Origin: a virus
Taxonomy: Duplodnaviria > Heunggongvirae > Uroviricota > Caudoviricetes
DNA length: 64,000 nucleotides
Direction: 5' to 3' (one strand)
Virus record (IMG/VR): IMGVR_UViG_3300027734_000034
In this document: positions 13,411-61,802 of the stretch, piece by piece
How the letters are laid out: each line of letters begins with the position of its first letter
Position numbering within the stretch: the stretch's first letter is position 1
Notes under the pieces: model-generated
What the model saw: the letters and a program-made list of their open reading frames with translations, nothing else
Database searches by the model: none
What the model was told of the DNA's origin: nothing
Translations under genes and position numbers: made by a program

Positions 13411-13426
13411 GATAGGTTAAATACAA

Positions 13427-15483: not shown

Positions 15484-15505
15484 ATCTAAATCCTAAACTA
15501 TAGTG

Positions 15506-15513
15506 TATTTATC
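15506..15513 (-). promoter_or_regulatory. late-promoter-like box GATAAATA
   Basis: Minus-strand GTGATAAATACACTATAGTTTAGGATTTAGATATG; box 22 nt upstream of ATG at 15483. Confidence 0.35.
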
Positions 15514-15524
15514 ACTATTTTGGA

Positions 15525-16252: not shown

Positions 16253-16260
16253 GCATATAT

Positions 16261-31156: not shown

Positions 31157-31172
31157 TCACGAACGGTATCTG

Positions 31173-37516: not shown

Positions 37517-38035
37517 TTAGCTGACTTCTGTCCTCCCATCTCCTAGGTCCTTAGCACGGACCACTCTCATTTCTGAGGCCATTGCTCTATTTTCCGGATC
37601 AGCCTGTTGCTGTTCATAGAGTTCAAGTGCTACATTGCGACATACCGATTGAAACCAGCGTTCGGCAATGATAGTGTCTGTATCATCATCACGAATCTTA
37701 TATCCTGCACGAATTAGATTCAGAATGAATTTATCATTCCAATCAAGTTCAAACGCCCCAGTGTTAATATCATATGGATCAAGTTCCATCTTTAGTATAT
37801 TAACATACGGCAAACCAAGTTCATCTGCTTTTGCTTTGTCAGATACAGTTGGTTGTTCCTTCTGTACCTTAGGTGCCTTAGGTTTGCGAGGTTTCTTTAC
37901 CTTAGGCACTGCTGGGGGAGGAGCCAATAATTCCTCTAATGCTTTTTCTTTGCTACCAAAAAATCTATCAAATAGTCCCATTTTTATATCTCTCAAATAA
38001 TTTAAAGCTGGCAAGATTCTTTGCCTTTGATTCAC
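37517..38035 (-). CDS. hypothetical protein with Pro/Lys-rich linker (172 aa)
   Basis: ORF; PPAVPKVKKPRKPKAPKVQKEQP segment; overlaps UvdE 3' end. Confidence 0.4.
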   Translation of the reverse strand: MNQRQRILPALNYLRDIKMGLFDRFFGSKEKALEELLAPPPAVPKVKKPRKPKAPKVQKEQPTVSDKAKADELGLPYVNILKMELDPYDINTGAFELDWNDKFILNLIRAGYKIRDDDTDTIIAERWFQSVCRNVALELYEQQQADPENRAMASEMRVVRAKDLGDGRTEVS

Positions 38036-40755: not shown

Positions 40756-41330
40756 AAAAACTACTAACGATACTTGCATTGACCTTCTTTGGTTCTGCAT
40801 TTGCCGGAGAGATTACAGTATGTGATGGACAGTATGCATTATGTGCTGCTAGTACTTGCAAACCAACTAACAAAACAATTACTGGTAATAACGGCGTAGC
40901 ATACCCAGAAGTAGAATGCCGTTGCCCAATACTTAAAGGTCGTGCTATCGCTGATACATCAGCAGGTAACATGCAAGGTTCATGTGCTGCAACTGATGAT
41001 AAACATGTTTGGAGTTTGTTTGCTCCTAAACTTTACTACCCACAAGAGGCTAGCAATTTTAGCAACAAACCAAAAGATAAAAAAGTAACTATACAAAAGT
41101 GTGATGCTAGTTTGAATCTAGGTGCAAAGTCTAGCAATTGCTTTAGTTGGAATTGTACGATAGGTAGTGATGGTATTGCACTATGCTCATGCCCAACTGG
41201 TCAAGTACCGGCAAATACTGCATTTTTAACAGAAGCAGGTCAAGGTAACCCAGAAGCATGTTCACAATACCCAGTAAGTTTACCAATCAAAGCGCAAGAT
41301 AAGGCTGAAGCTAAGGAAGCAAAAAAATGA
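40752..41330 (+). CDS. secreted Cys-rich protein (192 aa)
   Basis: Signal peptide MKKLLTILALTFFGSAFA; 14 Cys; start overlaps upstream stop. Confidence 0.45.
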   Translation: MKKLLTILALTFFGSAFAGEITVCDGQYALCAASTCKPTNKTITGNNGVAYPEVECRCPILKGRAIADTSAGNMQGSCAATDDKHVWSLFAPKLYYPQEASNFSNKPKDKKVTIQKCDASLNLGAKSSNCFSWNCTIGSDGIALCSCPTGQVPANTAFLTEAGQGNPEACSQYPVSLPIKAQDKAEAKEAKK

Positions 41331-43072
41331 ACTTTAAAGAATTACACGAAGGCGCAGAGCCAAATATGCCTGGTGCCCCTAGTGGCATCAAGATTATGAC
41401 ACCTCAGCAGTTCGTTGCTAGTGCAGGTGATTCAAAATCTGATGAAGAGGTATCAGAAGGCGGTAATGCATTCATGCCAGGCATACAAAATACGGCAGAA
41501 TACAAAGCAGGTTTTGCAACAGGCAAGTTACCAGTTCCATATCCTGAAGGTACACAACAATATGCTAGCTATTACAAAGGAGTGATTGATAAGTCTACCC
41601 CTAATTTAAATAAAGGTACAGCAGGAAATTCGTTGACTGAATTTGCCCCTAGTGATGACGGTGATGATGGATTTAGTGAAGAAACACTAAAAGGTCTTGC
41701 AGCGCAATGGTGGAATGGTGATGAAGATCCTCGTGTAGAAAAATTATTGATGGCTGCAGGTTGGGAGATTGGTCAAGATGATGGGTATGACAACGGTGGT
41801 GTGTTTGTGGTGCGAGCCGGTGATGACAGTGGTCATAGTTATCTCAGTTGGCCAGCAGAAGAACTAAATCCTAATTTATCAGAAACACATTTAAATAGAA
41901 TTCGTAGCTTATCTGGATTAGTTGAAGCAACTAAACTACCAGCACAAACTCGTGATTTGGATAGTCAAGAATTTCAAGACTATATGAAGCGTATCGTTGG
42001 TACACCTGATTTAGACAAAGAAGGTAATGTTAAAGTAGATAAAAAAGGTAACGAAAAGTATACTACTGGCAAGACCAAAGGTGACAAATACAAGATGCCT
42101 TACATCCATCGTAGTAGTGTAGTTACATACTTAAGCCCAGATGGTAAAACATATGATGAAGATGCAGTTAAACAAACATTAGCAATTCGTCCTAAATCAT
42201 TATTAAAGCAAAATGAAAAGATGAAACATAGCAATGGTGAGTTTGAACAATTCTTCAATGTTGGATTTGCAGCATTAGTAGGAATTGCATTAGATGAACA
42301 AACTAATAAATTAATCATTGTTAATACTTGTCCAGGCGCTGGCTCTTGTAAAGTAGAGTGCTTTGCTATGAAAGGCGGCAAGATTCAATTCAAGGCTGCA
42401 TGGCAAAGTGACGGAAGAATACTAACATATCTATTAAATGATCCTGATGGTTTCTTCAATCAACTAAGTAGTGAAATATCTGCTGAGGCACAAGCAGCAG
42501 CAAAGGGTGATAAGAAATTCCCTAATGGTTGGCAAACAACAGTTCGCTGGCATGATGCTGGTGACTTCTTTAGTCCAGAATATTTAGACATGGCATTGAA
42601 GATGGCTGCTAAACATCCTGATGTTAAGTTCTATGCTTATACTAAAATGGCTGGAGCAGCATTAGCGGATAAGCCAGACAACTTCATTATCAATTGGAGT
42701 GAAGGTGCTAACACTGCACAAGAGAAACAAATCAAAGCACAAGATCCTAAGTTAGATAAAACAAAGAACAGTCGCATCGTTCCAGAGAAACTATTCTATG
42801 ACTTATTGGCTAAGGACGAGAAGGGCAATTTAGCAAAGACTCCAGATGGTGCATGGCAACCTGCAGGGCCGCAAGAATTACAACAAATGAAACAGCGTAT
42901 TGCAACAGAATACGGTATTAGTGCTAACTCTATTTTGAGTTATACTGAGTACATGGCTAAGAGAAATTCAATCCCAGCTGGAATGAAGTACAATGTTATT
43001 GTTGCACCAGGTGAAGGTGATGTTAGTGCTAACGACCCAGGCGTACTAAGTACCTTATTGCTAAGACATTAA
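41327..43072 (+). CDS. large hypothetical protein (581 aa) with CTS-like N-terminus MNFKELHE
   Basis: ORF with overlapping start; weak similarity of N-terminus to MRxxEFxxE leaders. Confidence 0.45.
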   Translation: MNFKELHEGAEPNMPGAPSGIKIMTPQQFVASAGDSKSDEEVSEGGNAFMPGIQNTAEYKAGFATGKLPVPYPEGTQQYASYYKGVIDKSTPNLNKGTAGNSLTEFAPSDDGDDGFSEETLKGLAAQWWNGDEDPRVEKLLMAAGWEIGQDDGYDNGGVFVVRAGDDSGHSYLSWPAEELNPNLSETHLNRIRSLSGLVEATKLPAQTRDLDSQEFQDYMKRIVGTPDLDKEGNVKVDKKGNEKYTTGKTKGDKYKMPYIHRSSVVTYLSPDGKTYDEDAVKQTLAIRPKSLLKQNEKMKHSNGEFEQFFNVGFAALVGIALDEQTNKLIIVNTCPGAGSCKVECFAMKGGKIQFKAAWQSDGRILTYLLNDPDGFFNQLSSEISAEAQAAAKGDKKFPNGWQTTVRWHDAGDFFSPEYLDMALKMAAKHPDVKFYAYTKMAGAALADKPDNFIINWSEGANTAQEKQIKAQDPKLDKTKNSRIVPEKLFYDLLAKDEKGNLAKTPDGAWQPAGPQELQQMKQRIATEYGISANSILSYTEYMAKRNSIPAGMKYNVIVAPGEGDVSANDPGVLSTLLLRH

Positions 43073-43893
43073 ACTTTAAGTATTTCTTCCAAAGAGTATA
43101 ACTCTTTCATATAGGGTGACACATTATCTAATACAGATATTGTTAAGTCACCCTTTCTTCTTGGGCCGTGTTTTACATCAAAGTCAGCATCATTGACCTT
43201 CTTGTATAGATCAACAATCTGTCTAACTGAACGACCTATACCGTGACCTAATGATTCTATTTGATTGCTTGGTTTCTCAATTGCAGTATGTAATGCATCA
43301 CATATCTCATTAACATGCACATAGTCACGAATGCAAGTTCCATCAAATGTATTATAATCTGTACCAAAGATAGTAAACTCACCCTTGTCTTTTGCCTGCA
43401 TTAAATTGTGCATCAATCCATCTGGATTGGTTGGCGCAAATCCATCGCTACCAATTACATTGTAGAATCTAAAGATAGTATATGGTGTAGGTCTATGCTG
43501 TGTACAATATTCACGCACAACATCTTCTGCGGCACGTTTACTTATACCATATGCACTAGCACAACCTTCTGCTGCACCAGTACTAGCAAATATAAAGTTC
43601 TTTGTTTTTATCTTGTTGATGACATTCATTGTGCCATTTAAGTTAGTGATGTAATATTGAATAGGAATTTGTTCACTTTCACCTACATTAACTAATGCAG
43701 CCAAATGAATTATTGCGTCAAATTCAATTGATAAGTCAATTAGTTTGCGTATATCATGTTGATAGAATTCACGCAATCCGTCAGCTTGTGGAATATTGAT
43801 ATCTAGTCCATGCACTTCATACTTGTCAGCTAACATCTTAATTAGATGACTACCAATATATCCTGAACAACCTGTTATTAATATTTTTTTCAT
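43069..43893 (-). CDS. NAD-dependent epimerase/dehydratase (SDR family)
   Basis: ILITGCSGYIGSHL Rossmann motif; YGISK catalytic YxxxK. Confidence 0.55.
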   Translation of the reverse strand: MKKILITGCSGYIGSHLIKMLADKYEVHGLDINIPQADGLREFYQHDIRKLIDLSIEFDAIIHLAALVNVGESEQIPIQYYITNLNGTMNVINKIKTKNFIFASTGAAEGCASAYGISKRAAEDVVREYCTQHRPTPYTIFRFYNVIGSDGFAPTNPDGLMHNLMQAKDKGEFTIFGTDYNTFDGTCIRDYVHVNEICDALHTAIEKPSNQIESLGHGIGRSVRQIVDLYKKVNDADFDVKHGPRRKGDLTISVLDNVSPYMKELYSLEEILKV

Positions 43894-45260
43894 GTAAATG
43901 AAAACAGACTTTCGCCTGTCTCTTCCTCTGTTGGTTTGTATGTTGGGTCTTTACTTAGATAACTATTATCATCTGTGTATATATTAACAATAAATTTGTA
44001 ACGGTTAGCCAACACACTTTCAAAATCTTCACGGGCTAAATGACTACGATTCAATTCTTTGATATAGTCACGGTAGCATATTGTATCATAATTATTAATC
44101 TTTGCTGCATTTGTATTGCTGCGTTTTGCTACAAAATCATCTAAGAACTTTATCCAACCTTGTGCAGTATCATCATCTAGTTTTTTGATATAGTCTAATG
44201 CACCAGTATTGTAATAGTTGTCAACAATATATAACATACTAATTAGATTGCTAGCGTTTGCTAGTTTCTCTTTATAGAAATATTTTTCATCAAAGTTATC
44301 AGACCATTCTTGATTGTCTAATACAACGCATGGCATATGACCAAGACATTCACTAAACGCAAAAGGATAATTTTCACCTAATGCTGGCATAAAGAATACT
44401 TTACAACTCTTAATGAAGTCTACCTTTTCTTGTCCTACAATAGCTACTTTAATTTCATAGTCTGTAATACCTGCTTCACTAAATGCTTTCTCAAACTTCT
44501 TAGCACCAGTACTATTAGTCATTACTTTGCAAGGTAAACCTGTTTCTTTCATTACTTTAATATAAGCGGACGGGTTCTTGCGTTCTTCCCATCGTCCAAT
44601 AAACAATACACCACTACGAGGTCCATTGTTAGGTTCAAGCAATTTTCTCTCACTTAATGGCATACGCAATAGTGATACATTCTTTGCACCATACTTAGTC
44701 ATCTCATCAACATTCTTTTGACTTTGTGTTCCTACAAAACTATGTGATAGTTCCATATGCTTGTTAAAGAAGTTATGATATTCATCTAAGCATACATCAC
44801 TAAAGTCTTGTTCATCACGGAACACCATGCTATATGAATGAGTATAGAATACAACTGGAATATACTTACCTATTCCCATTGCATAAGCAGCACTCATTGC
44901 CTCTTGCGTGTTACACACTAGCATATCATAGATATTAGACTCAAAAGCAAGCATGAGACTTTTTCTAAAGTTAACCATCTTTTCAAAATTGATACTATCA
45001 CTAAATGCAAATGTACCTGTATGATCTGAATAGCGTATACCAGAATCTGTATATATGATATTTGCACCCAATGACTTAACCAATGTAGCTAAATCGTTTG
45101 TTGGTTCTTTATCTAATATGATATCAACTTTCCAGTTGATACGATCTCCTAGTTCAGTAAATCCCTTAGCAAATTGACCTATACCACCATGTGTTATAAA
45201 GTGCTGATCACTAATTAAAAATCCAATACGTTTATTATATATCCGCATTCCATACCTCAT
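43890..45260 (-). CDS. GT-B glycosyltransferase (GT4-like)
   Basis: E-x7-E motif ENYPFAFSECLGHMPCVV in C-terminal domain; two-domain size 456 aa. Confidence 0.4.
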   Translation of the reverse strand: MRYGMRIYNKRIGFLISDQHFITHGGIGQFAKGFTELGDRINWKVDIILDKEPTNDLATLVKSLGANIIYTDSGIRYSDHTGTFAFSDSINFEKMVNFRKSLMLAFESNIYDMLVCNTQEAMSAAYAMGIGKYIPVVFYTHSYSMVFRDEQDFSDVCLDEYHNFFNKHMELSHSFVGTQSQKNVDEMTKYGAKNVSLLRMPLSERKLLEPNNGPRSGVLFIGRWEERKNPSAYIKVMKETGLPCKVMTNSTGAKKFEKAFSEAGITDYEIKVAIVGQEKVDFIKSCKVFFMPALGENYPFAFSECLGHMPCVVLDNQEWSDNFDEKYFYKEKLANASNLISMLYIVDNYYNTGALDYIKKLDDDTAQGWIKFLDDFVAKRSNTNAAKINNYDTICYRDYIKELNRSHLAREDFESVLANRYKFIVNIYTDDNSYLSKDPTYKPTEEETGESLFSFT

Positions 45261-45432
45261 CTACAGCCGGGACAGTAATCCATTCAGTTAATTCTTTTCT
45301 AATTAGAAATGAACCTGTTCTTGGATTTGTTATGCTGTAATCTGTTATTTCACGTTCATAACGATATTGCAATATCTTCTCTGGACCTTCTTCCCAATTG
45401 GGTGTAACAAGCCAACGCATCTCAAATTTCAT
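45235..45432 (-). CDS. hypothetical protein (65 aa)
   Basis: ORF only. Confidence 0.35.
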   Translation of the reverse strand: MKFEMRWLVTPNWEEGPEKILQYRYEREITDYSITNPRTGSFLIRKELTEWITVPAVDEVWNADI

Positions 45433-45674
45433 ATTAAATCCTTTAATCTTGCTATTAAATATTCATCTTTATCGTACCAACGATGTTCATACAACCAATC
45501 TGTATCACCTGCTCTGTATCCTGCGGTAATACAATATGCATTCTCTAACCACATTGTACGCTTTGTTATATGGCATTGTCTAGGCAATAGGGTAAACTTT
45601 AATTTTCTACCCATAATACATTTTTTAAAATGATAATCACCGGCTGTTTGTGTAGTCCAATCACTTGAGGGCAT
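45429..45674 (-). CDS. hypothetical protein (81 aa)
   Basis: ORF only. Confidence 0.35.
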   Translation of the reverse strand: MPSSDWTTQTAGDYHFKKCIMGRKLKFTLLPRQCHITKRTMWLENAYCITAGYRAGDTDWLYEHRWYDKDEYLIARLKDLI

Positions 45675-45769
45675 TATTCTCTATCCACTCTAGCATTTAC
45701 ATTAGCACGATGTGCCATATAGAATACCGCTACTATGTATCCAAGTAAGAATCCCCAGAAGAATGTCAT
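45674..45769 (-). CDS. possible 31-aa single-TM peptide (MTFFWGFLLGYIVAVFYMAHRANVNARVDRE)
   Basis: Found by hand; stop TAA overlaps ATG of next gene (TAATG). Confidence 0.3.
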   Translation of the reverse strand: MTFFWGFLLGYIVAVFYMAHRANVNARVDRE

Positions 45770-46612
45770 TTAAGTGCCCCATTCGTTTTTGAATAACGGC
45801 ACTTGTAGTCTATCACTGTACCGCCATCCTTTTCGCATTGCCATTTCTGCAACCGCCCTATTATTAAGATTGTACACCCGCTCAACGCCACCACAAGGCA
45901 TAAGATAGACATGACCACGAAAACCCCTCTTACGATACGCATTTACTGCCTCCTCAGCTTCTTCCATATCCTCGTTAGTAGCTACTACAAATTTGAGATA
46001 TGTATGCCCAACTTGGCTATATTCATAGATTATGTCTGGGCAGATAGCATCATCCCACTTCTCACCACTGATGCTGAGTTTAGGACTGACGCTGAATGTG
46101 ATAGAACCCATGCTACGACTTGTACACCATTTATTCAAGAAGAATCGTAGATCCTGATGTAATGATTGTGTACCATTAGTCTCAAAAGTTAGTTCTTGTA
46201 AGCTACGCATCTTCTCGTTTGAAAGTAAATCAACAAAACTACGCTGCCAACCTAGTAGTGGCTCACCACCAGTGATGACAAGATGCTCATCTAACCAACG
46301 CTTCTCTGGCAACATATCCATGATACTACTAACAATACTATCAGTTTCAAGCATTGGACTTAAGTCTTTGAATCTGGGATCCCAACTCGCATAGCTATCA
46401 CATCCTGTACTGACAAGTGGTAACATTTTGTAATCAGTATACTTTGTCGGGTCGATATTATTTGCTTCCTCGCTTAGTTTACCTTTCGGCATACCAAAGC
46501 CTGCACATTTGAAGTTACATCCGAATGTTCGTAGAAATACTGAGGGGACACCCATGTATCTACCTTCACCTTGAATGCTATAGAATAGTTCTGCTATTTT
46601 TAATTTTGCCAT
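45770..46612 (-). CDS. queE: 7-carboxy-7-deazaguanine synthase (QueE-like radical SAM)
   Basis: N-terminus AELFYSIQGEGRYMGVPSVFLRTFGCNFKC matches QueE E.FxSxQGEG...G.P.xFxRxxGC; Cys cluster spacing atypical (CxxxC...C). Confidence 0.6.
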   Translation of the reverse strand: MAKLKIAELFYSIQGEGRYMGVPSVFLRTFGCNFKCAGFGMPKGKLSEEANNIDPTKYTDYKMLPLVSTGCDSYASWDPRFKDLSPMLETDSIVSSIMDMLPEKRWLDEHLVITGGEPLLGWQRSFVDLLSNEKMRSLQELTFETNGTQSLHQDLRFFLNKWCTSRSMGSITFSVSPKLSISGEKWDDAICPDIIYEYSQVGHTYLKFVVATNEDMEEAEEAVNAYRKRGFRGHVYLMPCGGVERVYNLNNRAVAEMAMRKGWRYSDRLQVPLFKNEWGT

Positions 46613-46615
46613 GTT

Positions 46616-47713
46616 TTATTGCCTGAATGAATTTATGTCACCTAAATATACTTTTTTGTTTTTAAAAATATCATCTTTTAATATTTCTTTTAGTAAAATT
46701 TTATCTTCTGCGTTTAAATTTAATCTATCGTACATAATGTTATCTAAATGTCCCCACTGCCGTATACTATTAAAATATATACCTGTCAAGTTTTCATATG
46801 ATAATTGCCAATTAATATAGTCTTTAATTTCTTTATAATTACCTTTTTGGACAGTAAAAGAAGTACTCCAGCCAATAAAATTTTTAAAACTGTTACTTAT
46901 AATCATTTCATTAAGAAATTTTAAATTTTCATCTAATTTATCTTTAGATCCATTTATTCTTATCTTTGAATAAGTTTCATTTGAAAATGCATCGATACTT
47001 ACTGTAATATGTGTGATATTATTCCATAATGGTTTTATTTGATTCCAGCGTGATTCTGTCATTAAAATACCGTTGGTCATTAGTTTTATTGTTAAATTTT
47101 CATTTAGATTTTTTGTTGACAATGTTTTTAAGTAATTCCAATAAGTAGGACTTGCAAAAGCATCTCCACTACCAGTAATGTTTATACTAACCTTTTCACC
47201 TTGTTCTAATAAATAATCAACAAGTTTTTCAACTTTGTCATTGATATTATCTATTTGTTTATTTTCTCCCAATTTATGAAGTATTAAATTATTACGACAA
47301 CTAGGACATTGCAAATTACATGATAAATCATAACAAAAATGAATTATGATTGAATTAGAATTTTTATAAAAATCTAATAATTGCAAAGGTACAATTGTAT
47401 TACCAGGCATTACTTTATCATTTAACATTTGACTAATAAAAGGACAATAGTCATTGCAGTTTGTGAATTTACCCTCACTCATATCTGATATCATAGCTAG
47501 TCGTTCTGAATTATTAATGATATCTTCTATTGAATCTGTAATAATATTGCCGCAAAATTTTGGTAACCAAGAAAAACAACATATAGTAATATCACCATTG
47601 TGGTGAATTTCTAAATGTTTTGATATTTTATAACAGCCGAAATTTTTTAAATATTCCTGTGTTCTTGCATACTCATTTTCTGATTTCATTAAAAAATTCA
47701 TGTTATGATTCAA
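46616..47713 (-). CDS. radical SAM domain protein of unknown function
   Basis: CNLQCPSC (CxxxCxxC) motif about 130 aa from N-terminus; additional Cys pairs near N-terminus; 365 aa. Confidence 0.55.
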   Translation of the reverse strand: MNHNMNFLMKSENEYARTQEYLKNFGCYKISKHLEIHHNGDITICCFSWLPKFCGNIITDSIEDIINNSERLAMISDMSEGKFTNCNDYCPFISQMLNDKVMPGNTIVPLQLLDFYKNSNSIIIHFCYDLSCNLQCPSCRNNLILHKLGENKQIDNINDKVEKLVDYLLEQGEKVSINITGSGDAFASPTYWNYLKTLSTKNLNENLTIKLMTNGILMTESRWNQIKPLWNNITHITVSIDAFSNETYSKIRINGSKDKLDENLKFLNEMIISNSFKNFIGWSTSFTVQKGNYKEIKDYINWQLSYENLTGIYFNSIRQWGHLDNIMYDRLNLNAEDKILLKEILKDDIFKNKKVYLGDINSFRQ

Positions 47714-48192
47714 TCTTTAAATTCATTATCTTCTCTGTGTCCTTGACGACCTGCCATGTTTGAATCAGTCTCACGTACTTCTACTTTACAGCACCAAACA
47801 CGTTTGGCTTCTTCACTGCCGCAGTTGGGTAAGAAGATAGTGTTCACATATTCATATAAGAAATCACTGATACCTTCACATCCTGTCTTTTCAACCTCTG
47901 TAATTTTTGCTAGTTTAAGTTTACCTAGATTCAATAGATGTTCACGCATCGGGTCATCTTGTGCGACTAGTAATGTATGATCGAACCATTCTTCTAATTT
48001 TTCTTTGAGTGGTTTCAAGCCACCAAAGTCAGTCACCCAGTTTCGTGCATCTAATGTATCCGCTTCAAATTCAAAATGAAACGACATTGCGTAACCATGA
48101 ATCATGTTACAATGACTATCTGCACGCCATTGACGATAAGCTACTGGACCTATCTGTTTGTACGTTTTTGTACTGAAATATTTTTTTGCCAT
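47710..48192 (-). CDS. queD: QueD/PTPS-family protein (6-carboxytetrahydropterin synthase-like), divergent metal site
   Basis: SHCNMIHGYAMSFHFEFE vs QueD HKCGRLHGHSFMVRLEI; WFDHTLLV vs LDHHYLN; third His replaced by Tyr. Confidence 0.5.
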   Translation of the reverse strand: MAKKYFSTKTYKQIGPVAYRQWRADSHCNMIHGYAMSFHFEFEADTLDARNWVTDFGGLKPLKEKLEEWFDHTLLVAQDDPMREHLLNLGKLKLAKITEVEKTGCEGISDFLYEYVNTIFLPNCGSEEAKRVWCCKVEVRETDSNMAGRQGHREDNEFKD

Positions 48193-48266
48193 GTTGTTCT
48201 CCTATGTTAATTATAGCATAGGCAGCAGAATTTGTAAAGCGGGATGATGACCGAAGACCGCTATCT

Positions 48267-48728
48267 TTATTTATCCTTTGATTCAGCTTGTACTACACGC
48301 TTACGCAAACTACTGCTACTGAAACTATGGTCACGGCTATTGAATACTAATTCAATCTTACGCTTCTCGCAGATTGCTCTACCAGTAAAGTCTTTCTCCA
48401 TGTACTCAACCCCTAGTATACGCACATCTACTGGCAATGTCAACAGTATGTCTTCCAAATCTTTTTCTGTATTGTAAACAACAATTTCATCTACAAAACG
48501 GACAGCACTTAAACTGATTTGGCGTTCAACAATACTTTGAATGGGAGCATTCTTATCTGGTCTATCCCATTGTGCATTATTTTGTAACCCAGCAATGAGG
48601 TAATCGCAATGATTCTTAGCTTCACTAAGCATTGCGATATGTCCTGCATGTAATATATCAAATTGCGAGAACACGATACCTATCTTTAGGCCTTGTAATT
48701 TTAGTTCTTTGATACGGTTGAATATCAT
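48267..48728 (-). CDS. cytidylyltransferase-family nucleotidyltransferase (TagD/RfaE-II-like, HxGH motif)
   Basis: IGIVFSQFDILHAGHIAMLSEAKNHCDYLIAG aligns with TagD [30 protein letters not shown]. Confidence 0.6.
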   Translation of the reverse strand: MIFNRIKELKLQGLKIGIVFSQFDILHAGHIAMLSEAKNHCDYLIAGLQNNAQWDRPDKNAPIQSIVERQISLSAVRFVDEIVVYNTEKDLEDILLTLPVDVRILGVEYMEKDFTGRAICEKRKIELVFNSRDHSFSSSSLRKRVVQAESKDK

Positions 48729-48997
48729 TCTTCAACTCCAAAAAAGTGTTCTTTAATTGCTACATAACTGTCAACACCACATTGAACATAACCATCCCAA
48801 TGTGTGTCCTTCATCATAAGTTCATCTTCCAGCACAGGCAGATATTGTTCTCTTACTTGATTCATACATTCAGCTATAATCAATTCAGCAAGATTTTCTA
48901 AGTTTTGTTTGTCATCATCATGCCCGTATAAGCTAGACCGTTTTAATGCCCAATCAAATCCAGCCTGTTCAGCAAGTTGTTGAATTCGTTCGTTCAT
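48725..48997 (-). CDS. MNERI/HFGVE small-protein family member
   Basis: MNERIQQLAEQAG, NLENLAELIIAEC, C-terminus KEHFFGVEE. Confidence 0.5.
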   Translation of the reverse strand: MNERIQQLAEQAGFDWALKRSSLYGHDDDKQNLENLAELIIAECMNQVREQYLPVLEDELMMKDTHWDGYVQCGVDSYVAIKEHFFGVEE

Positions 48998-49677
48998 TTC
49001 CCACCCCGAGCCAATTGATAGAATTCTGCTCTTGCTGCTGGATCACTTTTGAATCCACCACCTAATTTACTTGTAACAGTACTAGAGCCAGTATCTTCTA
49101 CACCTCTTGATTTAACACAATAATGTTGTGCATCAATCATGACCGCAACATCTTCTGTCTCAAGGATATATTGCAATGCGTGAAAGATTTGTTCTGTCAA
49201 TCGTTCTTGTATTTGTGGACGCTTGCTAAAGTATTCTACGATACGATTGATTTTACTCAATCCAAGTACTTTCTGATTGGGAACGTATGCCACAGTTGCT
49301 AGTCCATCGATGACTACAAAGTGATGTTCGCAATTGCTTTGTACATTGATATTGCGTTCGCATACCATTTCGTTGTACTTCATCTTGTTATCAACTGCTG
49401 TACATTTAGGAAATGCCTCATAATCTAATCCCCAAAAGATTTCATTGACATACATCTTTGCTACACGTTTTGGGGTGTCAATCAGACTATCATCTGTTAA
49501 GTCAAGACCTAATGCTGTCATAATATCAGCAAATAATACTTCAATGACTTCAATCTTGCCTTTACGGTCGATGATTTGACCTGTCTCTTTGATAGGAGTT
49601 TCAACTCCCATCTTAACCAAATGTTCGTGTACTTTTTGACCCAACTCTGGATCTGTTTTTGTTTTATTATAACTCAT
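48994..49677 (-). CDS. folE: GTP cyclohydrolase I
   Basis: CEHH motif (NCEHHFVV), C-terminal QHYCVKSRGVEDTGSSTVTS region typical of FolE; strong RBS AAGGAAGG. Confidence 0.8.
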   Translation of the reverse strand: MSYNKTKTDPELGQKVHEHLVKMGVETPIKETGQIIDRKGKIEVIEVLFADIMTALGLDLTDDSLIDTPKRVAKMYVNEIFWGLDYEAFPKCTAVDNKMKYNEMVCERNINVQSNCEHHFVVIDGLATVAYVPNQKVLGLSKINRIVEYFSKRPQIQERLTEQIFHALQYILETEDVAVMIDAQHYCVKSRGVEDTGSSTVTSKLGGGFKSDPAARAEFYQLARGGK

Positions 49678-49713
49678 AGATAACCTTCCTTTGTGATGGT
49701 TTTTGTTTTGAAA

Positions 49714-49739
49714 TGTAAGCTACCGTTGTGTAGCTTACA
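49714..49739 (-). other. 10-bp perfect hairpin TGTAAGCTAC-N6-GTAGCTTACA in folE 5' region, downstream of GATAAATAA box (49743-49751)
   Basis: Seen in sequence; followed on minus RNA by UUUCAAAAC; either terminator of upstream small gene or 5'-UTR structure. Confidence 0.4.
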
Positions 49740-49756
49740 TATTTATTTATCACAGA

Positions 49757-49945
49757 TTAAGCCTTAGCTTCTTTTCTTGCTGCTTTTTCAGCGGTGATTT
49801 CATTACGGCGAGCCTTGACTGCTTTAGCTAGTTCACCCAATGCTTTACGGGCACGAGTTCCTGCTGCTGCATTACCTTTTTCAAATTTTTCATGTTCGGC
49901 TTCGTATGCTGCCAATTGTGTTTTAATATCATTATGTGCGTTCAT
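49757..49945 (-). CDS. small Ala/Lys-rich helical protein (62 aa)
   Basis: ORF only. Confidence 0.35.
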   Translation of the reverse strand: MNAHNDIKTQLAAYEAEHEKFEKGNAAAGTRARKALGELAKAVKARRNEITAEKAARKEAKA

Positions 49946-49970
49946 TTTATTTCCTTTTTAAAATTTTTTT

Positions 49971-50354
49971 TTATTCGTCAAGTCTGGTGATTTCTAAATC
50001 ACAATCAATAATCATTTCGCATTCGTCTTGACTCCAGCCGTGTTCTTCTAAGTCAAGCCAAGAATTACCTTCTTCAAAGAATTCTTCTATCCAAGCTGTA
50101 GTTTCTTCATCACAGTCATCTGTGTCAACTTCTTCCCAGCAACCATCGCTAGTTTCAACTAGTTCAGCTTCATATCCGCAGTCGTACATATCTACTCCTG
50201 CTTCAATATCAGGGGGATTATCATCTTCTGTTTCTACAGTAAATTCTCCCCAACGCCATCCTGTTTCAACCATGACCTTATTACCATCTTTAGTAAGATA
50301 GTTACGTTCAATGATTGATTTCTTCCATGTTGGTTTTACACTCCATATTGCCAT
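49971..50354 (-). CDS. highly acidic small protein (127 aa)
   Basis: Asp/Glu-rich: EVDTDDCDEETTAWIEEFFEEGNSWLDLEEHGW. Confidence 0.45.
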   Translation of the reverse strand: MAIWSVKPTWKKSIIERNYLTKDGNKVMVETGWRWGEFTVETEDDNPPDIEAGVDMYDCGYEAELVETSDGCWEEVDTDDCDEETTAWIEEFFEEGNSWLDLEEHGWSQDECEMIIDCDLEITRLDE

Positions 50355-50355
50355 T

Positions 50356-51555
50356 TTAATATTTCCTTTCTTTAGTGTGTTTTCTGTAATCAGTACTCAT
50401 GCGTAGCATATCATCGCCCTTGCCCTCTAATATATCACAGATTCTATCAATCGTGCTATCGTTACGGTCACTTATCTTTCCCATGTTCTTATGAGGCTCT
50501 TGTAGAAGCCTACGTAACTTACCAATAGCATTATCAATGCTCCAAGGGATATACAAACGGTCAGGATCGTTAGCGAAAGTTTCAGGGAAGCTACGATAAG
50601 CAGGATAGAGAACATTGCATCCGAGTGCATCAGCCTCACTGACTGTGTTCGAAACCCAATCTTGTAACGCACAGTTAAATACAACCCGACTATCATTAAC
50701 AATGTTGTAGTATTCATTCTTTTCTAAATCCTCATGTATTGTCAATAGTCCACGACTCACCAAGTCGCGGGTTCGTTGCATATAGCTGTCGCTATTAGAT
50801 TTAAGTTTACCCCCGCTACACACGCAGAATTTAATATCAGTGTCTGGGTTTTCAGTGTACCATTGTTCAATGAGGTCCATATAGAAATCAGGTTGTTTCT
50901 CCTGATCCCAACGGGCACTGAATACTACACGATTCTTTCGTTCATTAAATGGCTTGATACTAGCGACACGACCTTGTACTTCACTCTTGCCAAATGCTAA
51001 TCCACTGATATTGTAGATTGGAGCACGCCAACCTGCAATCTTCATATGCATTACCATTTCTTCATTAGTTGCTAGTACACCGTCTACGAACGAATCAACC
51101 ATCTTTTCATAATGCCCCATAAATTCTGACATATTCCAAACATGTACAAAATCATCAGGATCAATAGACTGGGCAAGACAGCGAACAAAAATACGAGGAC
51201 GGTGCTCACTACTGATTTGATTGAGTATATAAGGTAGGCTCTCAATACCGGGCTGAAACATGTCCTCAAAGTAGATAACATCTTCATTGTTCAGTTCTCC
51301 TGCTTTCATCATCTTGATTAGATTCATCAGTTGACTCATACCGTAGTATGTGCGACCATGTGCATCTAATACTTGACCCGTTACTATTGCTTGGTCATTA
51401 CTAAGTGTTTCCCCGGGTACTACAACATAGTTGATACCTCTAAGATCAAACACCGTAGTATTCCACTCTTGCAATTGCAGAGTGTACCTTGCTTTGTAGG
51501 GCTCAAGCCCCATGTAATATAGCTTACGCATTATGGACGAGCGTTTTCTTGCCAC
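50356..51555 (-). CDS. GT-B glycosyltransferase-like protein
   Basis: C-terminal NTVSEADALGCNVLYPAY resembles GT1/GT4 E-x7-E region; 399 aa. Confidence 0.35.
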   Translation of the reverse strand: MARKRSSIMRKLYYMGLEPYKARYTLQLQEWNTTVFDLRGINYVVVPGETLSNDQAIVTGQVLDAHGRTYYGMSQLMNLIKMMKAGELNNEDVIYFEDMFQPGIESLPYILNQISSEHRPRIFVRCLAQSIDPDDFVHVWNMSEFMGHYEKMVDSFVDGVLATNEEMVMHMKIAGWRAPIYNISGLAFGKSEVQGRVASIKPFNERKNRVVFSARWDQEKQPDFYMDLIEQWYTENPDTDIKFCVCSGGKLKSNSDSYMQRTRDLVSRGLLTIHEDLEKNEYYNIVNDSRVVFNCALQDWVSNTVSEADALGCNVLYPAYRSFPETFANDPDRLYIPWSIDNAIGKLRRLLQEPHKNMGKISDRNDSTIDRICDILEGKGDDMLRMSTDYRKHTKERKY

Positions 51556-51737
51556 TGATCTCTCGCAACTTTTCCAGTTGCGAATTTTGTATACTGACGA
51601 TAGACATAACTACGTTGGTCGTAGAGTTCTGCTTCGTTGTACTTATAACCAAAATCCACGCAGAATTCTAGATATTTCTCTAGGTCCTCAAAGATTTGTT
51701 GAACACGTGGGTTTGATTGAAAAGTTTGTTTTGCCAT
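51531..51737 (-). CDS. hypothetical protein (68 aa)
   Basis: ORF only. Confidence 0.35.
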   Translation of the reverse strand: MAKQTFQSNPRVQQIFEDLEKYLEFCVDFGYKYNEAELYDQRSYVYRQYTKFATGKVARDQWQENARP

Positions 51738-51746
51738 TTTATTTCC

Positions 51747-52199
51747 TTAGATAGCGAGGTTAGTTAAAGGTTTAGTTACATTATAAAAAATCGTAGCACC
51801 ATTCTCATTGTCCTCTGAGACAGTGATAGTGATATTACGATCTGGATACCGAGTTGCAATAACCTCATAAAGATCATCACTAATCATTTCACAACTTTTG
51901 TAATACAATGCAAGAATGCCTTGAGAATATTGATTCTCTAACCATCGTTTGAATTGAATAAACTCAATATCACGGTCGTTGTGAAATACTTCAATCGTCA
52001 CCTCAAAGTGAAAGATGTGACGATGTGGAGTTGCTAAAAAGCTAACATCATACTCATCACCTGTTGCCAAGTTAGGGTCTGTTGCTGCTGCGGGGTATTT
52101 ATGAATACCTTCTTTTTGAAAACGTACAAAAATTGTACGCATTGCTTTATCTTTAATTCGTTGACGTTTTTCAGCCAATACTTGCGTTTGTTGTTCCAT
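51747..52199 (-). CDS. hypothetical protein (150 aa)
   Basis: ORF only. Confidence 0.4.
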   Translation of the reverse strand: MEQQTQVLAEKRQRIKDKAMRTIFVRFQKEGIHKYPAAATDPNLATGDEYDVSFLATPHRHIFHFEVTIEVFHNDRDIEFIQFKRWLENQYSQGILALYYKSCEMISDDLYEVIATRYPDRNITITVSEDNENGATIFYNVTKPLTNLAI

Positions 52200-52408
52200 T
52201 ATCTATCATCCTCAAAATTAACTCGTTCATGGTCTTCATCCCATTGAAGTCTTGTATATCTTCTTAACTCTAAGTATACATCAAGCCTATCTATTTTCAT
52301 ATCTTTAAGGGCATCTACAGTAAAGTCTTTATCCTGTTCTGCTGCTAGTATTTTAGCATCAAGGTCCTTGAGTTGTTGTTCTAATCTTGCAATTCGTTGT
52401 CTATACAT
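52199..52408 (-). CDS. small coiled-coil protein (69 aa)
   Basis: ORF only. Confidence 0.35.
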   Translation of the reverse strand: MYRQRIARLEQQLKDLDAKILAAEQDKDFTVDALKDMKIDRLDVYLELRRYTRLQWDEDHERVNFEDDR

Positions 52409-52412
52409 ATTA

Positions 52413-54008
52413 TTACTCCAAAACTAATGACATAGCGTCATCGCTATCTTCTATTTCCTCAATTGGTTCTTCATCTACAGTAAACAATTCATTAAACATA
52501 GTCATAGCATTAACTGTTTTTTTACCACTAATACCTTGGCTACCTGATTGGAATTGTTTCCAATAACTACTATGATAGTCAATCAACTCCCATGCTTCAT
52601 CTTTAGTTTTCTTTGAAAAGATTTCATCAACTAATGTAGTGAAGAATCTATCACCTTCAAACTTATGAACAATCATCTTAGGAATCACACCTTGTTCATA
52701 TTGCCGATTAGCCTCTTGAACTGCATTCATATGCATCCAAACATTGTGACTTTGAATCAATGTGTAACTCAATGTATCCCAACTTGTTTTAGTTTCTTTG
52801 CCATGTTGTCCTAAGAATCCTACCCCACGATAACACATATCTTTGAGTGTAAGTAAATCAGTTACTGGACTATCCGTAAATGTTTTATGTATTCCTTCAG
52901 CTAACACCGCATCACGAAACTTGCGAGTATCACTAGCATATGATTTCTTCTCGGCAGTCTTTTCCATTTGATAAGACCACTTCTTATTATGTTGAATAGT
53001 TGTATTAAAATATGCCAATCCTTTAGCTGCACTATAAAATGGACTTGCACAGTCAAAAGTAATTTGAAGTTTAGGATTATGATATTTACGAATAGCTTTT
53101 TGAATATCAGTAAACAATACTGCATATTCTAATATACTTGTACCCAAACAATGTACTAAATCATGCTTATCTTCACGCAATAACCCGTCGTGAATTATTT
53201 CAGTCAATCTACGCAATGTCAAATGAATGTCAATTTTATTTTGTCCACCGAACGCCCATCCGTTAAAATGATTATCTGGATAGATATTTGGGTCACAGTA
53301 TTTTTTCATTTCAGTATACCATGTATCGCTGGCTGTATGATTACGACCCTGCAACACATTTAAAAACTTGCATTTCCCTGAGCGATTTTTTATAAAATAT
53401 TCATTATTGATATGAGTAGCTGTTATAGCTTCTTCAACATTTTTGATACCATGCAGACTTTTTCCAGTACCTGGAATAGTGTTACCATCACTATCTTTTT
53501 CTACTGTCTTAGGGTCTTTCATATGAAAAGTAAGTTCAGACTGACTTGGTATATCTAAACACATACCATAGTCCATGTATGTGTCCATCCATGTTAATAC
53601 TGCTTTGCGTTTTTTCATAGCACGAGGACAGTTAGGATCCTTCCAGTCTGCGGGCCATTGACCTTTTAAAATTTGAAAGCCACCACTGTCACCCAACATG
53701 AATGTACCTTGCTCACGCTCACGTATGATACTCTCATTGTTATCGTTCACAGTGGTATCTAAGTTAGCATGACCGGCAGAGTATAGTCCCCACTTGTAAT
53801 AGTAAAGACCTTCTTTGCTGTTTAAGAAGTTTAATTTCTCAACATCGCCCTTGAACCCTGCAGGGATGCGAGCCTGATCAAAGTATGGTTCACCCTTGCG
53901 TTGCTTACCCAAACCAGCAATATAGAAACTGCTGACTGCGGGTAAGAACAATGCCCATTCAGGGTCTTGTTTTAGTGATAGATTATCCTGGACCATATGG
54001 TAAATCAT
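52413..54008 (-). CDS. dpdA: tRNA-guanine transglycosylase superfamily protein (DpdA-like DNA-guanine transglycosylase candidate)
   Basis: FMLGDSGGFQILKG matches TGT catalytic LTDSGGFQVFSL; GWAFGG cf. TGT GYAVGG; located in 7-deazaguanine gene cluster. Confidence 0.5.
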   Translation of the reverse strand: MIYHMVQDNLSLKQDPEWALFLPAVSSFYIAGLGKQRKGEPYFDQARIPAGFKGDVEKLNFLNSKEGLYYYKWGLYSAGHANLDTTVNDNNESIIREREQGTFMLGDSGGFQILKGQWPADWKDPNCPRAMKKRKAVLTWMDTYMDYGMCLDIPSQSELTFHMKDPKTVEKDSDGNTIPGTGKSLHGIKNVEEAITATHINNEYFIKNRSGKCKFLNVLQGRNHTASDTWYTEMKKYCDPNIYPDNHFNGWAFGGQNKIDIHLTLRRLTEIIHDGLLREDKHDLVHCLGTSILEYAVLFTDIQKAIRKYHNPKLQITFDCASPFYSAAKGLAYFNTTIQHNKKWSYQMEKTAEKKSYASDTRKFRDAVLAEGIHKTFTDSPVTDLLTLKDMCYRGVGFLGQHGKETKTSWDTLSYTLIQSHNVWMHMNAVQEANRQYEQGVIPKMIVHKFEGDRFFTTLVDEIFSKKTKDEAWELIDYHSSYWKQFQSGSQGISGKKTVNAMTMFNELFTVDEEPIEEIEDSDDAMSLVLE

Positions 54009-54369
54009 TAACCTCTTCTTTTTTAATTAAAGTTCTGACAATACGTATCTGTTCTTCTTTTTGCTTGATAGTGTCTAGTAAATCTTTGATAGTGGGATTA
54101 GTTTCTGCTAATGCTGATAATTCCATTTCTTCATCACGCTTTTTTCTAGCCCAATCAAGTAATGATTCTGCATCAGATGATAACCCAATACTTGCATAGC
54201 TAGTATTCATTGTCATCCAAGTACTTCCGTCAAACACTTGCGTATCAGTACCATTAATACGTATCATCCCTTGAATAGGATTGTTTATATTCTGATTGAT
54301 ATAGGGAACACTAGTGTTCCCTGCGGAAACAACGGTGTACTTACCCATTGGAGCTATACCCTTGATCAT
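53983..54369 (-). CDS. hypothetical protein (128 aa)
   Basis: ORF only. Confidence 0.4.
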   Translation of the reverse strand: MIKGIAPMGKYTVVSAGNTSVPYINQNINNPIQGMIRINGTDTQVFDGSTWMTMNTSYASIGLSSDAESLLDWARKKRDEEMELSALAETNPTIKDLLDTIKQKEEQIRIVRTLIKKEEVNDLPYGPG

Positions 54370-55097
54370 TTTTTGTTCGCTGGAAGCAAGTAAACATATG
54401 TTGCGATACCACTATCAACTGTAATCTCAGTCGCACCTTGTTCGCTAATCTTGACTTTCTTGTCACCAACTTGATCCATGATACTCAAGAATTCTTTAAC
54501 GGGCCACTTATGTGTACCAGCTAGTGTACCAGTCACTGGGGTGTTGAACACAAAGTTACCACTGTGAGTTGATGCATCACCAAAGTATATCTTCAAATCA
54601 CTGCCATCAGTTTTGAATACAAAATGTTCTTCTTCGCTATTAGCATTTGCTTGCTTTTTAAGACGTTGAATACCTGCAACTGTCGGCTCAAATTCAACAT
54701 TCCATTTAGCACCTTTGAATGATACACTCTTAACTTTTTCATCGACTACGCTTTTAAGCATAAGACGATAGTCATTAACAAAATCACCGTTCTTTGTTTC
54801 GAAATGAATAGTAGATGGAACATCTACACCATCACGCTGAGTACGAACAACATTGATTTTAGCATCTTTGTCATATTCGTCAAACCCGATAATTGTCTTG
54901 AGTTTACTCAAGTTAGGCATACCAAACACACCGATAAAGTCAGCTAGTGGGTCTTTGAATGTACCACTTACGATAACATTTTTGTTTTCAGCTACTGCAT
55001 TGATAGTAGTCTCTGTATCAGTACCAGTAACTTTAACAAGTTCAATTGTACCAAGACCATGCGTATGGTCAATTAAGTCTTTTAAATAATCTTTCAT
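54366..55097 (-). CDS. hypothetical protein (243 aa) immediately downstream of DNA polymerase
   Basis: ORF only; no convincing match to T4 gp45 clamp. Confidence 0.4.
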   Translation of the reverse strand: MKDYLKDLIDHTHGLGTIELVKVTGTDTETTINAVAENKNVIVSGTFKDPLADFIGVFGMPNLSKLKTIIGFDEYDKDAKINVVRTQRDGVDVPSTIHFETKNGDFVNDYRLMLKSVVDEKVKSVSFKGAKWNVEFEPTVAGIQRLKKQANANSEEEHFVFKTDGSDLKIYFGDASTHSGNFVFNTPVTGTLAGTHKWPVKEFLSIMDQVGDKKVKISEQGATEITVDSGIATYVYLLPANKK

Positions 55098-61770: not shown

Positions 61771-61802
61771 AAGAGTGATTAAATATATATTTAACAGCAT
61801 TT

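Follow-up and report, generated by a model that had tools for sequence, protein, structure and literature searches.

A predicted DpdL-type 7-deazaguanine island with linked glycosyltransferase genes in an uncultivated jumbo myovirus clade

Eight 7-deazaguanine bases of DNA have been catalogued, none of which carries a sugar, and the string 'glycosyl' does not occur in the main text of the study that lists them (Cui et al. 2023, NAR, PMC10516641). In that study, DpdL, in which LxxxHRHxF replaces the CxxxHGH of QueD, was proposed as a 7-carboxy-7-deazaguanine (CDG) decarboxylase in phages that have FolE, QueD, QueE and DpdA but not QueC. In phage phiST, 2'-deoxy-7-deazaguanine (dDG) replaces 100% of the dG. 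When the dpdL and dpdA genes of phage ACP17 were placed in E. coli, no dDG was obtained, which led the authors to propose that the route may require additional enzymes. Here we analyse an island that very probably belongs to the same type, located at 43069-54008 on the minus strand of a 64,000-nucleotide stretch of Caudoviricetes DNA (IMG/VR record IMGVR_UViG_3300027734_000034), which as a whole is called the window below. An earlier note made from this sequence had listed nine genes in the island, from a DpdA-like transglycosylase to an SDR epimerase, and had suggested a possibly new hypermodified base. All nine genes exist and their order was correct, but the list omitted a 150-amino-acid (aa) open reading frame (ORF) between the transglycosylase and the first glycosyltransferase. 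This ORF encodes the putative DpdL. Gene order and gene presence were compared across 80 related loci, the order being judged in those that are long enough.

The enzymes of the core have clear matches. FolE matches its Pfam model at 6e-62 and NCBIfam NF006824 with 321.6 bits (cutoff 202), and is 63% identical to the ACP17 protein and 61% to that of Synechococcus phage BUCT-ZZ01. The QueD-like protein matches PTPS (PF01242, 8e-16) and phrog_2389 (2e-41) and is 71% identical to ACP17 QueD, and QueE matches phrog_2076 (1e-50) together with partial matches to NCBIfam QueE models. The DpdL ORF matches phrog_17812 (5e-31), a family labelled "unknown function". By tblastn it is 34% identical to DpdL of phiST, 55% to that of ACP17, 52% to those of PA5oct-like phages and 70% to that of Phosso, and the DpdL signature is found as L-ATP-HRH-I-F. 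Among the related loci, 71 DpdL ORFs were counted. No QueC family match was obtained among the about 45 window ORFs scanned, and the Pfam annotations of four related loci (L090-L092 and L096) list none either. The sole PP-loop protein of the window, an ATPase, was considered as QueC and rejected, as it is a TilS N-domain (TIGR02432, 129 bits, cutoff 93.6). Judged from these sequence matches, the island would, with high confidence, be a DpdL-type, QueC-independent 7-deazaguanine module.

Like the dDG pathway of Cui et al. (2023, PMC10516641), the island contains FolE, QueD, QueE, DpdL and a DpdA-family enzyme with no QueC in the window, and like the clusters of phiST and ACP17 it adjoins the DNA polymerase gene. 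Unlike those clusters, it encodes a much longer transglycosylase of a different family (531 aa, where the phiST protein has 259 aa and the ACP17 protein 425 aa), related to theirs at profile level only. It also adds two GT4 glycosyltransferases, a GalE-like SDR, a CDP-alcohol-type cytidylyltransferase, an Hc1-like protein and, in the case of this window, a radical-SAM enzyme. The core thus belongs to a pathway already described in 2023, that of DpdL and dDG. The proposal of the earlier note, that these genes modify DNA with 7-deazaguanine by way of a TGT/DpdA-fold enzyme, is supported by the core enzyme matches, by DpdL and by the fold described below, and a base other than preQ0 is supported by the absence of QueC in the window. 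The missing QueC had been counted as a new departure, which it is not, because a DpdL gene belongs to the published QueC-free pathway.

Three other unusual features had been pointed out, namely the altered metal site of QueD, the atypical Cys spacing of QueE and a second radical-SAM enzyme. All three are present. However, all the phage QueDs that were aligned have CxxxHGY in place of CxxxHGH, among them the enzyme of phiST, whose DNA is dDG-substituted, and the C-x3-C-x34-C spacing of QueE is common to BUCT-ZZ01, PA5oct, Vibrio phage 2.275.O and the whole clade. As the alignments indicate, both are family traits and no sign of new chemistry. The radical-SAM protein (rSAM365, with the motif CNLQCPSC) is found in 2 of the 80 related loci, in a fixed slot between QueD and QueE, and the same slot is used in relatives at 68% and 54% identity. 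It has 251 database homologs in total and no homolog in cultured phages, and a homolog at 43% identity lies in an unrelated cluster of three radical-SAM genes. As a core enzyme it was rejected, being absent from 78 of the 80 related loci and from all cultured phages; it is a rare accessory, an optional tailoring gene of a sub-lineage. The altered QueD ligands and the extra radical-SAM/SPASM enzyme between QueD and QueE had been taken together as a new 7-deazaguanine core chemistry. Both features do exist, yet such a chemistry is exceedingly improbable, given that HGY is universal in these phage QueDs, the functional phiST enzyme included, and that the radical-SAM gene is missing from nearly all related islands and occurs in an unrelated context at lower identity.

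Other interchangeable genes were observed at variable slots in the four related loci named above. They encode a protein with a faint 2OG-Fe(II) oxygenase-like match, an FAD/DAO oxidoreductase, a SAM synthetase, an APS-kinase-like protein, a CTP_transf-cupin fusion located between s68 (a small ORF next to dpdL) and the first glycosyltransferase gene, and an HNH endonuclease. Such swappable tailoring-type genes suggest diversification of the final modification.

The 531-aa protein has no match in Pfam, PHROGs or NCBIfam, nor by phmmer in PDB sequences, and a hidden Markov model (HMM) built from 74 diverse homologs gave only noise against PDB sequences, with neither tRNA-guanine transglycosylase (TGT) nor DpdA found. 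The Pfam failure is weak evidence against membership, because phiST DpdA3, an accepted phage DpdA, and the ACP17 protein also fail the same scan. As the sequence and profile searches against PDB gave nothing, the TGT assignment rests on structure, motifs and context. The absence of a TGT-fold hit had been named beforehand as an outcome that would speak against the whole proposal. While the curated sequence models are all silent, the predicted structure contains a TGT-type (beta/alpha)8 barrel and is closest to DpdA and TGT. Its named BFVD matches are viral TGTs, and Foldseek aligned the model to phiST M4SLA5 with E=0.084 and probability 0.80.

The motif LGDSGGFQIL occupies residues 105-114. 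Across the 74 homologs (25-48% identity), D107, S108 and G110 do not vary and G109 and Q112 hardly do, and D152, H286 and D319 are also invariant. D319 stands in an FD(C) context (ITFDCASPF), and in the alignment with the ACP17 protein it falls on the SYDS motif there. In TGT the 'FDC' motif carries the nucleophilic Asp, and D319 is likened to it by motif resemblance rather than by residue-level superposition. When the family was aligned by hhalign to the 425-aa ACP17 protein encoded beside DpdL, the match ran from DSGG through the second Asp (probability 95.7%, E=9e-9), and the match to phiST DpdA3 was weak (probability 52%, E=1.4e-4, 81 columns). The label DpdA3 was not adopted because of this weak match and because the protein is twice as long.

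The DSGGFQ-type motif is shared with bacterial DpdA (the preQ0 insertase, PDB 7ui4) and TGT, and the invariant Asp in FD(C) context resembles theirs. In contrast to these enzymes, the 531-aa protein belongs to a family with no invariant Cys for a zinc site, matches no sequence model, carries about 200 extra C-terminal residues and has a predicted substrate other than preQ0; in its model the region after residue 320 is of low confidence. Taken together, the predicted structure, the motifs and the context make it highly likely that the protein is a transglycosylase with a TGT fold, and that it stands apart, as a subfamily of its own, from bDpdA and DpdA1-4 as published. Literature searches for further DpdA subfamilies gave nothing relevant.

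Homologs of the 531-aa protein were found in PA5oct-like phages (33% identity), Phosso (28%) and Vibrio phage 2.275.O, and the family has more than 6,800 matches in a 90%-clustered database, forming 818 clusters at 50% identity, all of them unannotated. Since HMM annotation misses this family, with its 818 clusters and thousands of metagenomic copies, deazaguanine modification in environmental jumbo phages is under-counted. The relatives align from residue 5, and the true start is probably at 53996. In Vibrio phage 2.275.O (14797-21823), a 531-aa-type transglycosylase gene lies beside genes for an Amidoligase_2-like protein, QueF, a YhhQ-like transporter, QueC, a glutamine-amidotransferase-like protein and FolE. 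The presence of QueC in this neighbourhood means that the 531-aa-type subfamily is also used with a QueC-dependent pathway (preQ1 or G+ type), whose product is possibly an amide-linked adduct.

The sugar-type enzymes of the island are two putative glycosyltransferases (GT399 and GT456), a cytidylyltransferase (NT153) and an SDR (SDR274). The predicted structure of GT399 shows the two Rossmann domains of a GT-B fold, and its structural neighbours are 7fg9, 6kih, a BH4 glucosyltransferase, 7qsg, PimA and BshA. Lee et al. (2026, PMC13326640) report these PDB entries as neighbours of DNA glycosyltransferases of phages as well. R207, E211, K212, Q213 and Q290...E299 are invariant among the members from the window, BUCT-ZZ01, PA5oct, ACP17 and Phosso. 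The basic donor-binding R/K motif and the (D/E)x7E motif are intact, the latter as D-x7-E in the window protein. GT399 itself remains below the Pfam gathering thresholds (PF13524, 22.6 bits, cutoff 25; PF00534, 15.9 bits, cutoff 26.4), and within its family 5 of 10 members match PF00534, with E down to 5.5e-6, and one matches GT4-conflict PF20706. For GT456, all 11 of 11 family members match PF00534 below threshold (best 2.7e-5), and the profile gives marginal PDB matches to starch synthase, WlaC and TreT. Alignment of GT456 to the GT399 family by hhalign reached a low-confidence probability of 56%, spanning RW(E/D)xEK(N/Q)P and the EX7E region. GT456 is therefore best described as a weak but consistent candidate member of GT group-1. 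The claim of two GT-B enzymes thus holds in fold and motifs for GT399, whereas for GT456 there are only sub-threshold GT group-1 signals.

NT153 matches PF01467 (5e-10) and has an invariant HAGH at residues 27-30. Its family profile matches ECT (3.5e-24), TagD (2e-14) and CCT (6e-7) in PDB, and it lies below every NCBIfam equivalog cutoff. The predicted cytidylyltransferase with an HxGH motif is therefore present, but it is TagD/ECT-like and of a type that is common among phages with no deazaguanine genes; NT153 was rejected as a partner specific to the pathway, its best cultured-phage homologs having no deazaguanine genes nearby. SDR274 matches PF01370 (5e-33), NCBIfam galE (4e-48, below cutoff) and UDP-glucose 4-epimerases in PDB (2e-32), so the epimerase identified earlier is an SDR closest to GalE. 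Where the sequence of a related island extends far enough, GT456 and SDR274 are almost always retained, and NT153 is retained in most related islands. The related loci thus mark the sugar-type enzymes as a genuine, conserved part of the island.

Three divergent GT399 members were used as queries against 50,697 phage records, and the family was found in 23 of them. Eighteen of the 23 are among the 28 records with DpdL, belonging to PA5oct-like phages (11), Phosso, ACP17 (2), Xanthomonas phages X1 and BUDD, Burkholderia phage BCSR5 and BUCT-ZZ01, and in all 18 the distance from GT399 to DpdL is no more than about 3 kb. The association has p = 6e-58 by Fisher's exact test, to be read with the fact that the records are not independent and represent six lineages plus this clade. 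The remaining five GT399 records form one phage group, with a 24%-identity relative beside GlmS and a BshB-like deacetylase. GT456 relatives are also present in the DpdL phages BUDD and X1. In BUCT-ZZ01 (Kyanoviridae), as in the window, orthologs of both glycosyltransferases lie inside the deazaguanine cluster, which runs QueE, phosphoribosyltransferase, QueD, FolE, the GT456 ortholog (43%), an ACP17-type DpdA, DpdL and the GT399 ortholog (62%). Unlike the phage studied here, BUCT-ZZ01 has a T4-like freshwater cyanophage backbone, an ACP17-type DpdA and a phosphoribosyltransferase in the cluster, and it has neither NT153 nor SDR274 in the locus. The linkage of glycosyltransferases to DpdL therefore spans unrelated virion backbones and two transglycosylase subfamilies. 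These results indicate that the glycosyltransferases are probably tied functionally to the deazaguanine module.

A composite pathway can be proposed on this basis. From their strong homology, FolE, QueD and QueE would convert GTP to CDG. DpdL, by its homology to phiST DpdL, would process CDG, with decarboxylation to 7-deazaguanine as the published proposal, and the 531-aa enzyme, judged by fold, motifs and linkage, would exchange guanine in the phage DNA for the deazaguanine base. By their linkage, GT399 and GT456 would most likely attach at least one sugar to the modified base once it is in the DNA, SDR274 would interconvert a UDP-hexose donor and NT153 may supply a CDP-activated group. Candidate acceptors are N2, C7 and a C7 substituent processed in another way. 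A chemical precedent is HuiG of huimycin biosynthesis, which glycosylates N2 of a 7-deazapurine (PMC7439116). The model also draws on phage PA5oct, which has the DpdA-like, GT399-like, DpdL and QueE set and whose DNA behaves as G-modified (PMC12191111), on the failure of ACP17 dpdL and dpdA to give dDG by themselves (PMC10516641) and on the lack of a hydroxylated-pyrimidine route in the window. We tentatively favour this model of a DpdL-type module whose product is glycosylated further, with confidence somewhat short of even. That the sugar ends up on the deazaguanine in DNA is plausible but held with reserve. It is a more speculative possibility that the DpdL modules carrying GT399 in general (this freshwater clade, PA5oct-like phages, ACP17, Phosso, BUDD/X1, BCSR5 and BUCT-ZZ01) make glycosylated 7-deazaguanine in virion DNA. 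As part of this last proposal, further variety of the base in this clade would come from the second glycosyltransferase, the UDP-hexose epimerase, the CDP-alcohol-forming enzyme and the exchangeable tailoring genes (radical SAM, 2OG-Fe(II) oxygenase-like, FAD oxidoreductase). The idea of a hypermodified base has thus survived in its glycosylated form, strengthened by the comparative evidence, whereas the QueC, QueD and radical-SAM departures no longer point to new core chemistry.

Several observations weigh against glycosylation of the base, and some of them favour plain dDG as in phiST. In that case GT399, GT456, NT153 and SDR274 would be bystanders, serving for example virion or host-surface glycosylation, and would sit in the island only through clustering of early and metabolic genes. 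dDG has no hydroxyl and so offers no obvious O-glycosylation site, and phiST reaches 100% dDG without any GT399 homolog. It is one of 10 among the 28 DpdL records, its kin included, with no detectable GT399 relative. The closest cultured-phage homologs of NT153, a widespread phage gene, occur in Ab1-TPeters and Va1 without deazaguanine neighbours, and the GT456 relatives of BUDD and X1 lie far from DpdL and the deazaguanine cluster. Elsewhere in the window, a polysaccharide lyase and, beside fibre genes, a second SDR and a methyltransferase indicate other carbohydrate functions, and the sugar chemistry of the genome need not concern DNA. Apart from the bystander question, both AF2 models are of moderate quality (pLDDT 62 and 67), and neither the TGT nor the glycosyltransferase assignments reach curated sequence-model thresholds. 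A structural zinc site (Cys/His cluster) is a feature of TGT and DpdA structures, and the 74-sequence alignment of the 531-aa family contains no invariant or near-invariant Cys for it. The 64 kb seen come from a genome likely larger than 200 kb, in which QueC or a pyrimidine hydroxylase could be encoded elsewhere. On the other side, GT399 is essentially confined to DpdL phages and lies beside DpdL in seven unrelated backbones including this clade, both glycosyltransferases are embedded among FolE, DpdA and DpdL in BUCT-ZZ01, and the linkage persists across two DpdA subtypes. Plain dDG with bystander sugar genes is accordingly regarded as rather unlikely.

Alternatively, GT399 may supply the step that the DpdL route lacks by acting on a free small molecule (CDG, 7-deazaguanine or a pterin intermediate), for example to make the true DpdL or DpdA substrate or to trap an intermediate, and the final base could be with or without sugar. 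Consistent with this, ACP17 dpdL and dpdA gave no dDG by themselves in E. coli, where extra enzymes were invoked by the authors (PMC10516641). In the huimycin/dapiramicin pathways a glycosyltransferase (reported as PF13439) places a sugar on the 2-amino group of the 7-deazapurine; in huimycin it is HuiG, which adds GlcNAc and whose substrate is a free 7-deazapurine (PMC7439116). The huimycin pathway resembles the island in joining FolE, QueD and QueE chemistry with a glycosyltransferase, but its product is a free actinomycete secondary metabolite made through QueC (preQ0) and O-methylation, with no transglycosylase and no DNA involved. The phosphoribosyltransferase of BUCT-ZZ01 also fits a small-molecule step, as the QueC-less tubercidin pathway handles CDG by tailoring enzymes that include a phosphoribosyltransferase and a decarboxylase. 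However, phiST makes dDG without a glycosyltransferase, and TGT-type enzymes require a base with free N9-H. Action of GT399 on a small molecule is therefore clearly unlikely. The BUCT-ZZ01 phosphoribosyltransferase gene itself (7081-7542, PF00156, 3e-13), between QueE and QueD, hints at a nucleotide-level branch and recalls the phosphoribosyltransferase-dependent CDG processing of the tubercidin pathway; it has no counterpart in the window.

A pyrimidine is another conceivable acceptor. The window ThyA keeps L143, C146, D169 and N177 (numbered against an E. coli reference sequence) and scores above the NCBIfam thymidylate synthase cutoff, in agreement with the earlier note that thymidylate synthase is retained. 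N177D in a ThyA homolog confers dCMP specificity. Some phage ThyA homologs are 5-hydroxy-dCMP synthases, for which D169N is diagnostic and whose product is then glycosylated (Lee et al. 2026, PMC13326640). The window has no genes for a hydroxylated-pyrimidine route, its only ThyA homolog being the canonical one, and an acceptor of the 5-hydroxy- or hydroxymethyl-pyrimidine type made by window genes was rejected for this reason. The T4 alpha- and beta-glucosyltransferases and the systems for arabinosyl-5-hydroxycytosine in RB69 and DLP3 and for hexosyl-5-hydroxycytosine in RL38J1 (PMC13326640) resemble the island in using GT-B/GT4-like transferases and phage sugar-nucleotide enzymes. They differ in targeting a pyrimidine hydroxyl made by a ThyA homolog, whereas the glycosyltransferases of the island are tied to a purine pathway. 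No sequence similarity was detected between GT399 and the phage pyrimidine-DNA glycosyltransferases.

The sugars could still be placed on 5-hydroxy- or 5-hydroxymethyl-cytosine or -uracil made outside the window, as in RB69, DLP3 and RL38J1, with deazaguanine as a separate second modification. Phage DNA glycosyltransferases of this structural class, together with sugar-nucleotide enzymes, do glycosylate 5-hydroxycytosine (Lee et al. 2026, PMC13326640), and only part of the genome is seen. Against the canonical ThyA, and with GT399 relatives found only in DpdL phages and not in RB69-, DLP3- or RL38J1-like phages, this explanation is highly improbable.

Among cultured phages, Pseudomonas jumbo phage PA5oct (Wroclawvirus) has a locus like the island, in which homologs of the 531-aa protein (33%), the GT399 family, DpdL (52%) and QueE follow the polymerase and clamp genes in the order known from the island. 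Unlike the island, this locus has no detectable GT456 or NT153, and its one SDR274 match is weak (24.6%, E=1e-4). PA5oct DNA resists cleavage at G-containing restriction sites, and END nucleases, which act against phages with modified G, restrict this phage (PMC12191111). PA5oct, a therapy candidate, is with ACP17 and BUCT-ZZ01 a cultured phage in which glycosylation of the deazaguanine base can be tested. Literature searches for glycosylated deazaguanine in phage DNA and for the DNA chemistry of BUCT-ZZ01 gave nothing relevant.

In the literature surveyed, all sugar modifications of DNA are on a pyrimidine hydroxyl. If a glycosylated 7-deazaguanine is indeed made, it would be, to our knowledge, the first sugar-bearing purine hypermodification. 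Compared with the literature searched, two things are new, a large DpdA-like subfamily invisible to sequence models and a glycosyltransferase family coupled to DpdL. A glycosyltransferase family almost exclusive to DpdL phages points to an undescribed further step in guanine hypermodification, and GT399 is a concrete candidate for the "unknown enzyme" that blocks heterologous reconstitution of dDG.

Coordinates of the island genes and of other window features are collected in Table 1. In related loci that are long enough, the conserved order is polymerase, clamp, p128, DpdA, DpdL, s68, GT399, Hc1-like protein, FolE, NT153, QueD and QueE, followed by two small ORFs, GT456, SDR274 and then GP88 on the other strand. 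The Hc1-type protein is 69-98% identical across the related loci that carry its gene, and it places a DNA-compacting protein amid DNA-modification genes. The MNERI gene downstream of FolE, which had been listed with the island genes, is present but does not belong to the pathway. It is a copy of a dispersed paralog family, inserted sporadically; the paralogs start with MNERI(x)QLA and share an 'EKFAELI' core, and several stand in tandem elsewhere in the window.

Table 1. Genes of the island and other features of the window.
Feature	Position	Strand	Length (aa)	Remarks
Predicted DpdA-like DNA guanine transglycosylase	52413..54008	-	531	divergent unannotated family
Small ORF	52199..52408	-	69	between DpdA and DpdL; 34-74% identity; only part of related loci
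DpdL, proposed 7-carboxy-7-deazaguanine decarboxylase	51747..52199	-	150	T-fold, QueD-like
s68	51531..51737	-	68	always between DpdL and GT399; 41-96% identity; nearly all related loci
GT399, putative nucleotide-sugar glycosyltransferase	50356..51531	-	391	from ATG at 51531; GT-B, GT4-like
Acidic ORF	49971..50354	-	127	variable slot; in minority of related loci; no family match
Hc1-type histone H1-like DNA-binding protein	49757..49945	-	62	PF07432 1.5e-14
FolE, GTP cyclohydrolase I	48994..49677	-
MNERI-family small ORF	48725..48997	-		absent from most related islands
NT153, cytidylyltransferase	48267..48728	-		glycerol-3-P / ethanolamine-P / choline-P (CDP-alcohol) branch
QueD (6-carboxytetrahydropterin synthase)	47710..48192	-		phage type with CxxxHGY
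Radical-SAM enzyme	46616..47713	-		N-terminal SPASM/twitch domain; PF04055 + PF13186
QueE (7-carboxy-7-deazaguanine synthase)	45770..46612	-		phage type with C-x3-C-x34-C
Two small ORFs	45235..45674	-	81 and 65	between QueE and GT456; 34-72% identity in full-length related islands; no family match
GT456, putative GT group-1 (GT4-like) glycosyltransferase	43890..45260	-		fast-evolving
SDR274, NAD-dependent sugar-nucleotide 4-epimerase	43069..43893	-		short, GalE-like
Fibre region	6844-17220	-	1585 and 582	two collagen-repeat fibre-like proteins
Class I methyltransferase	13427-14128			after the collagen-repeat fibre-like proteins
Second SDR	16261-17220			dTDP-glucose 4,6-dehydratase-like; adjoining ThyA
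Polysaccharide lyase	24758-25549
MNERI paralogs	30203-31409	-		several in tandem
SPFH/Band-7 protein	31536-32393
UvdE UV-endonuclease	37968-39023
Trio of genes	39073-43072	+		converging on island end
p128	53983-54369	-	128	26-nt overlap with annotated start of the DpdA-like gene
Clamp-position protein	54366-55097	-	243	after polymerase
TilS N-terminal PP-loop domain	58189-58797	-		stand-alone; just upstream of DNA polymerase
TctC-family periplasmic binding protein	60814-61800
Non-specific DNA/RNA endonuclease	62333-63145

The source phage is a member of an uncultivated jumbo myovirus clade. Its DNA polymerase is at most 49% identical to that of any cultured phage, the nearest being Sinorhizobium phage Phosso, Vibrio phage 2.275.O, Agrobacterium phage Atu_ph07 and the CBB/GAP32 group, and megablast of the island against the 50,697 phage records gave no match. 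Metagenome contigs from ENA and JGI, the longest about 350 kb, carry relatives of the island, and the window also encodes a T4-type large terminase, collagen-like fibre proteins and a MoxR/VWA pair. The T4-like background assumed at first applies in the broad sense only, as this is a jumbo-phage clade and not T4 proper.

The class I methyltransferase and the second SDR beside the fibre genes may serve a separate sugar-related function, such as fibre decoration. The plus-strand trio encodes a DUF6321 protein, a Cys-rich, secreted-looking protein of 192 aa and a GP88-domain protein of 581 aa, and in several related loci a GP88-domain gene is likewise on the opposite strand beside the SDR end of the island. 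The 243-aa protein encoded after the polymerase has no Pfam match, and it matches genes annotated as 'sliding clamp' in Phosso and 'structural protein' in PA5oct. No tRNA gene was found in the window by ARAGORN. The stand-alone TilS-type N-domain is 52-84% identical in related loci and could be a tRNA-lysidine-type enzyme or an unrecognised amidotransferase.

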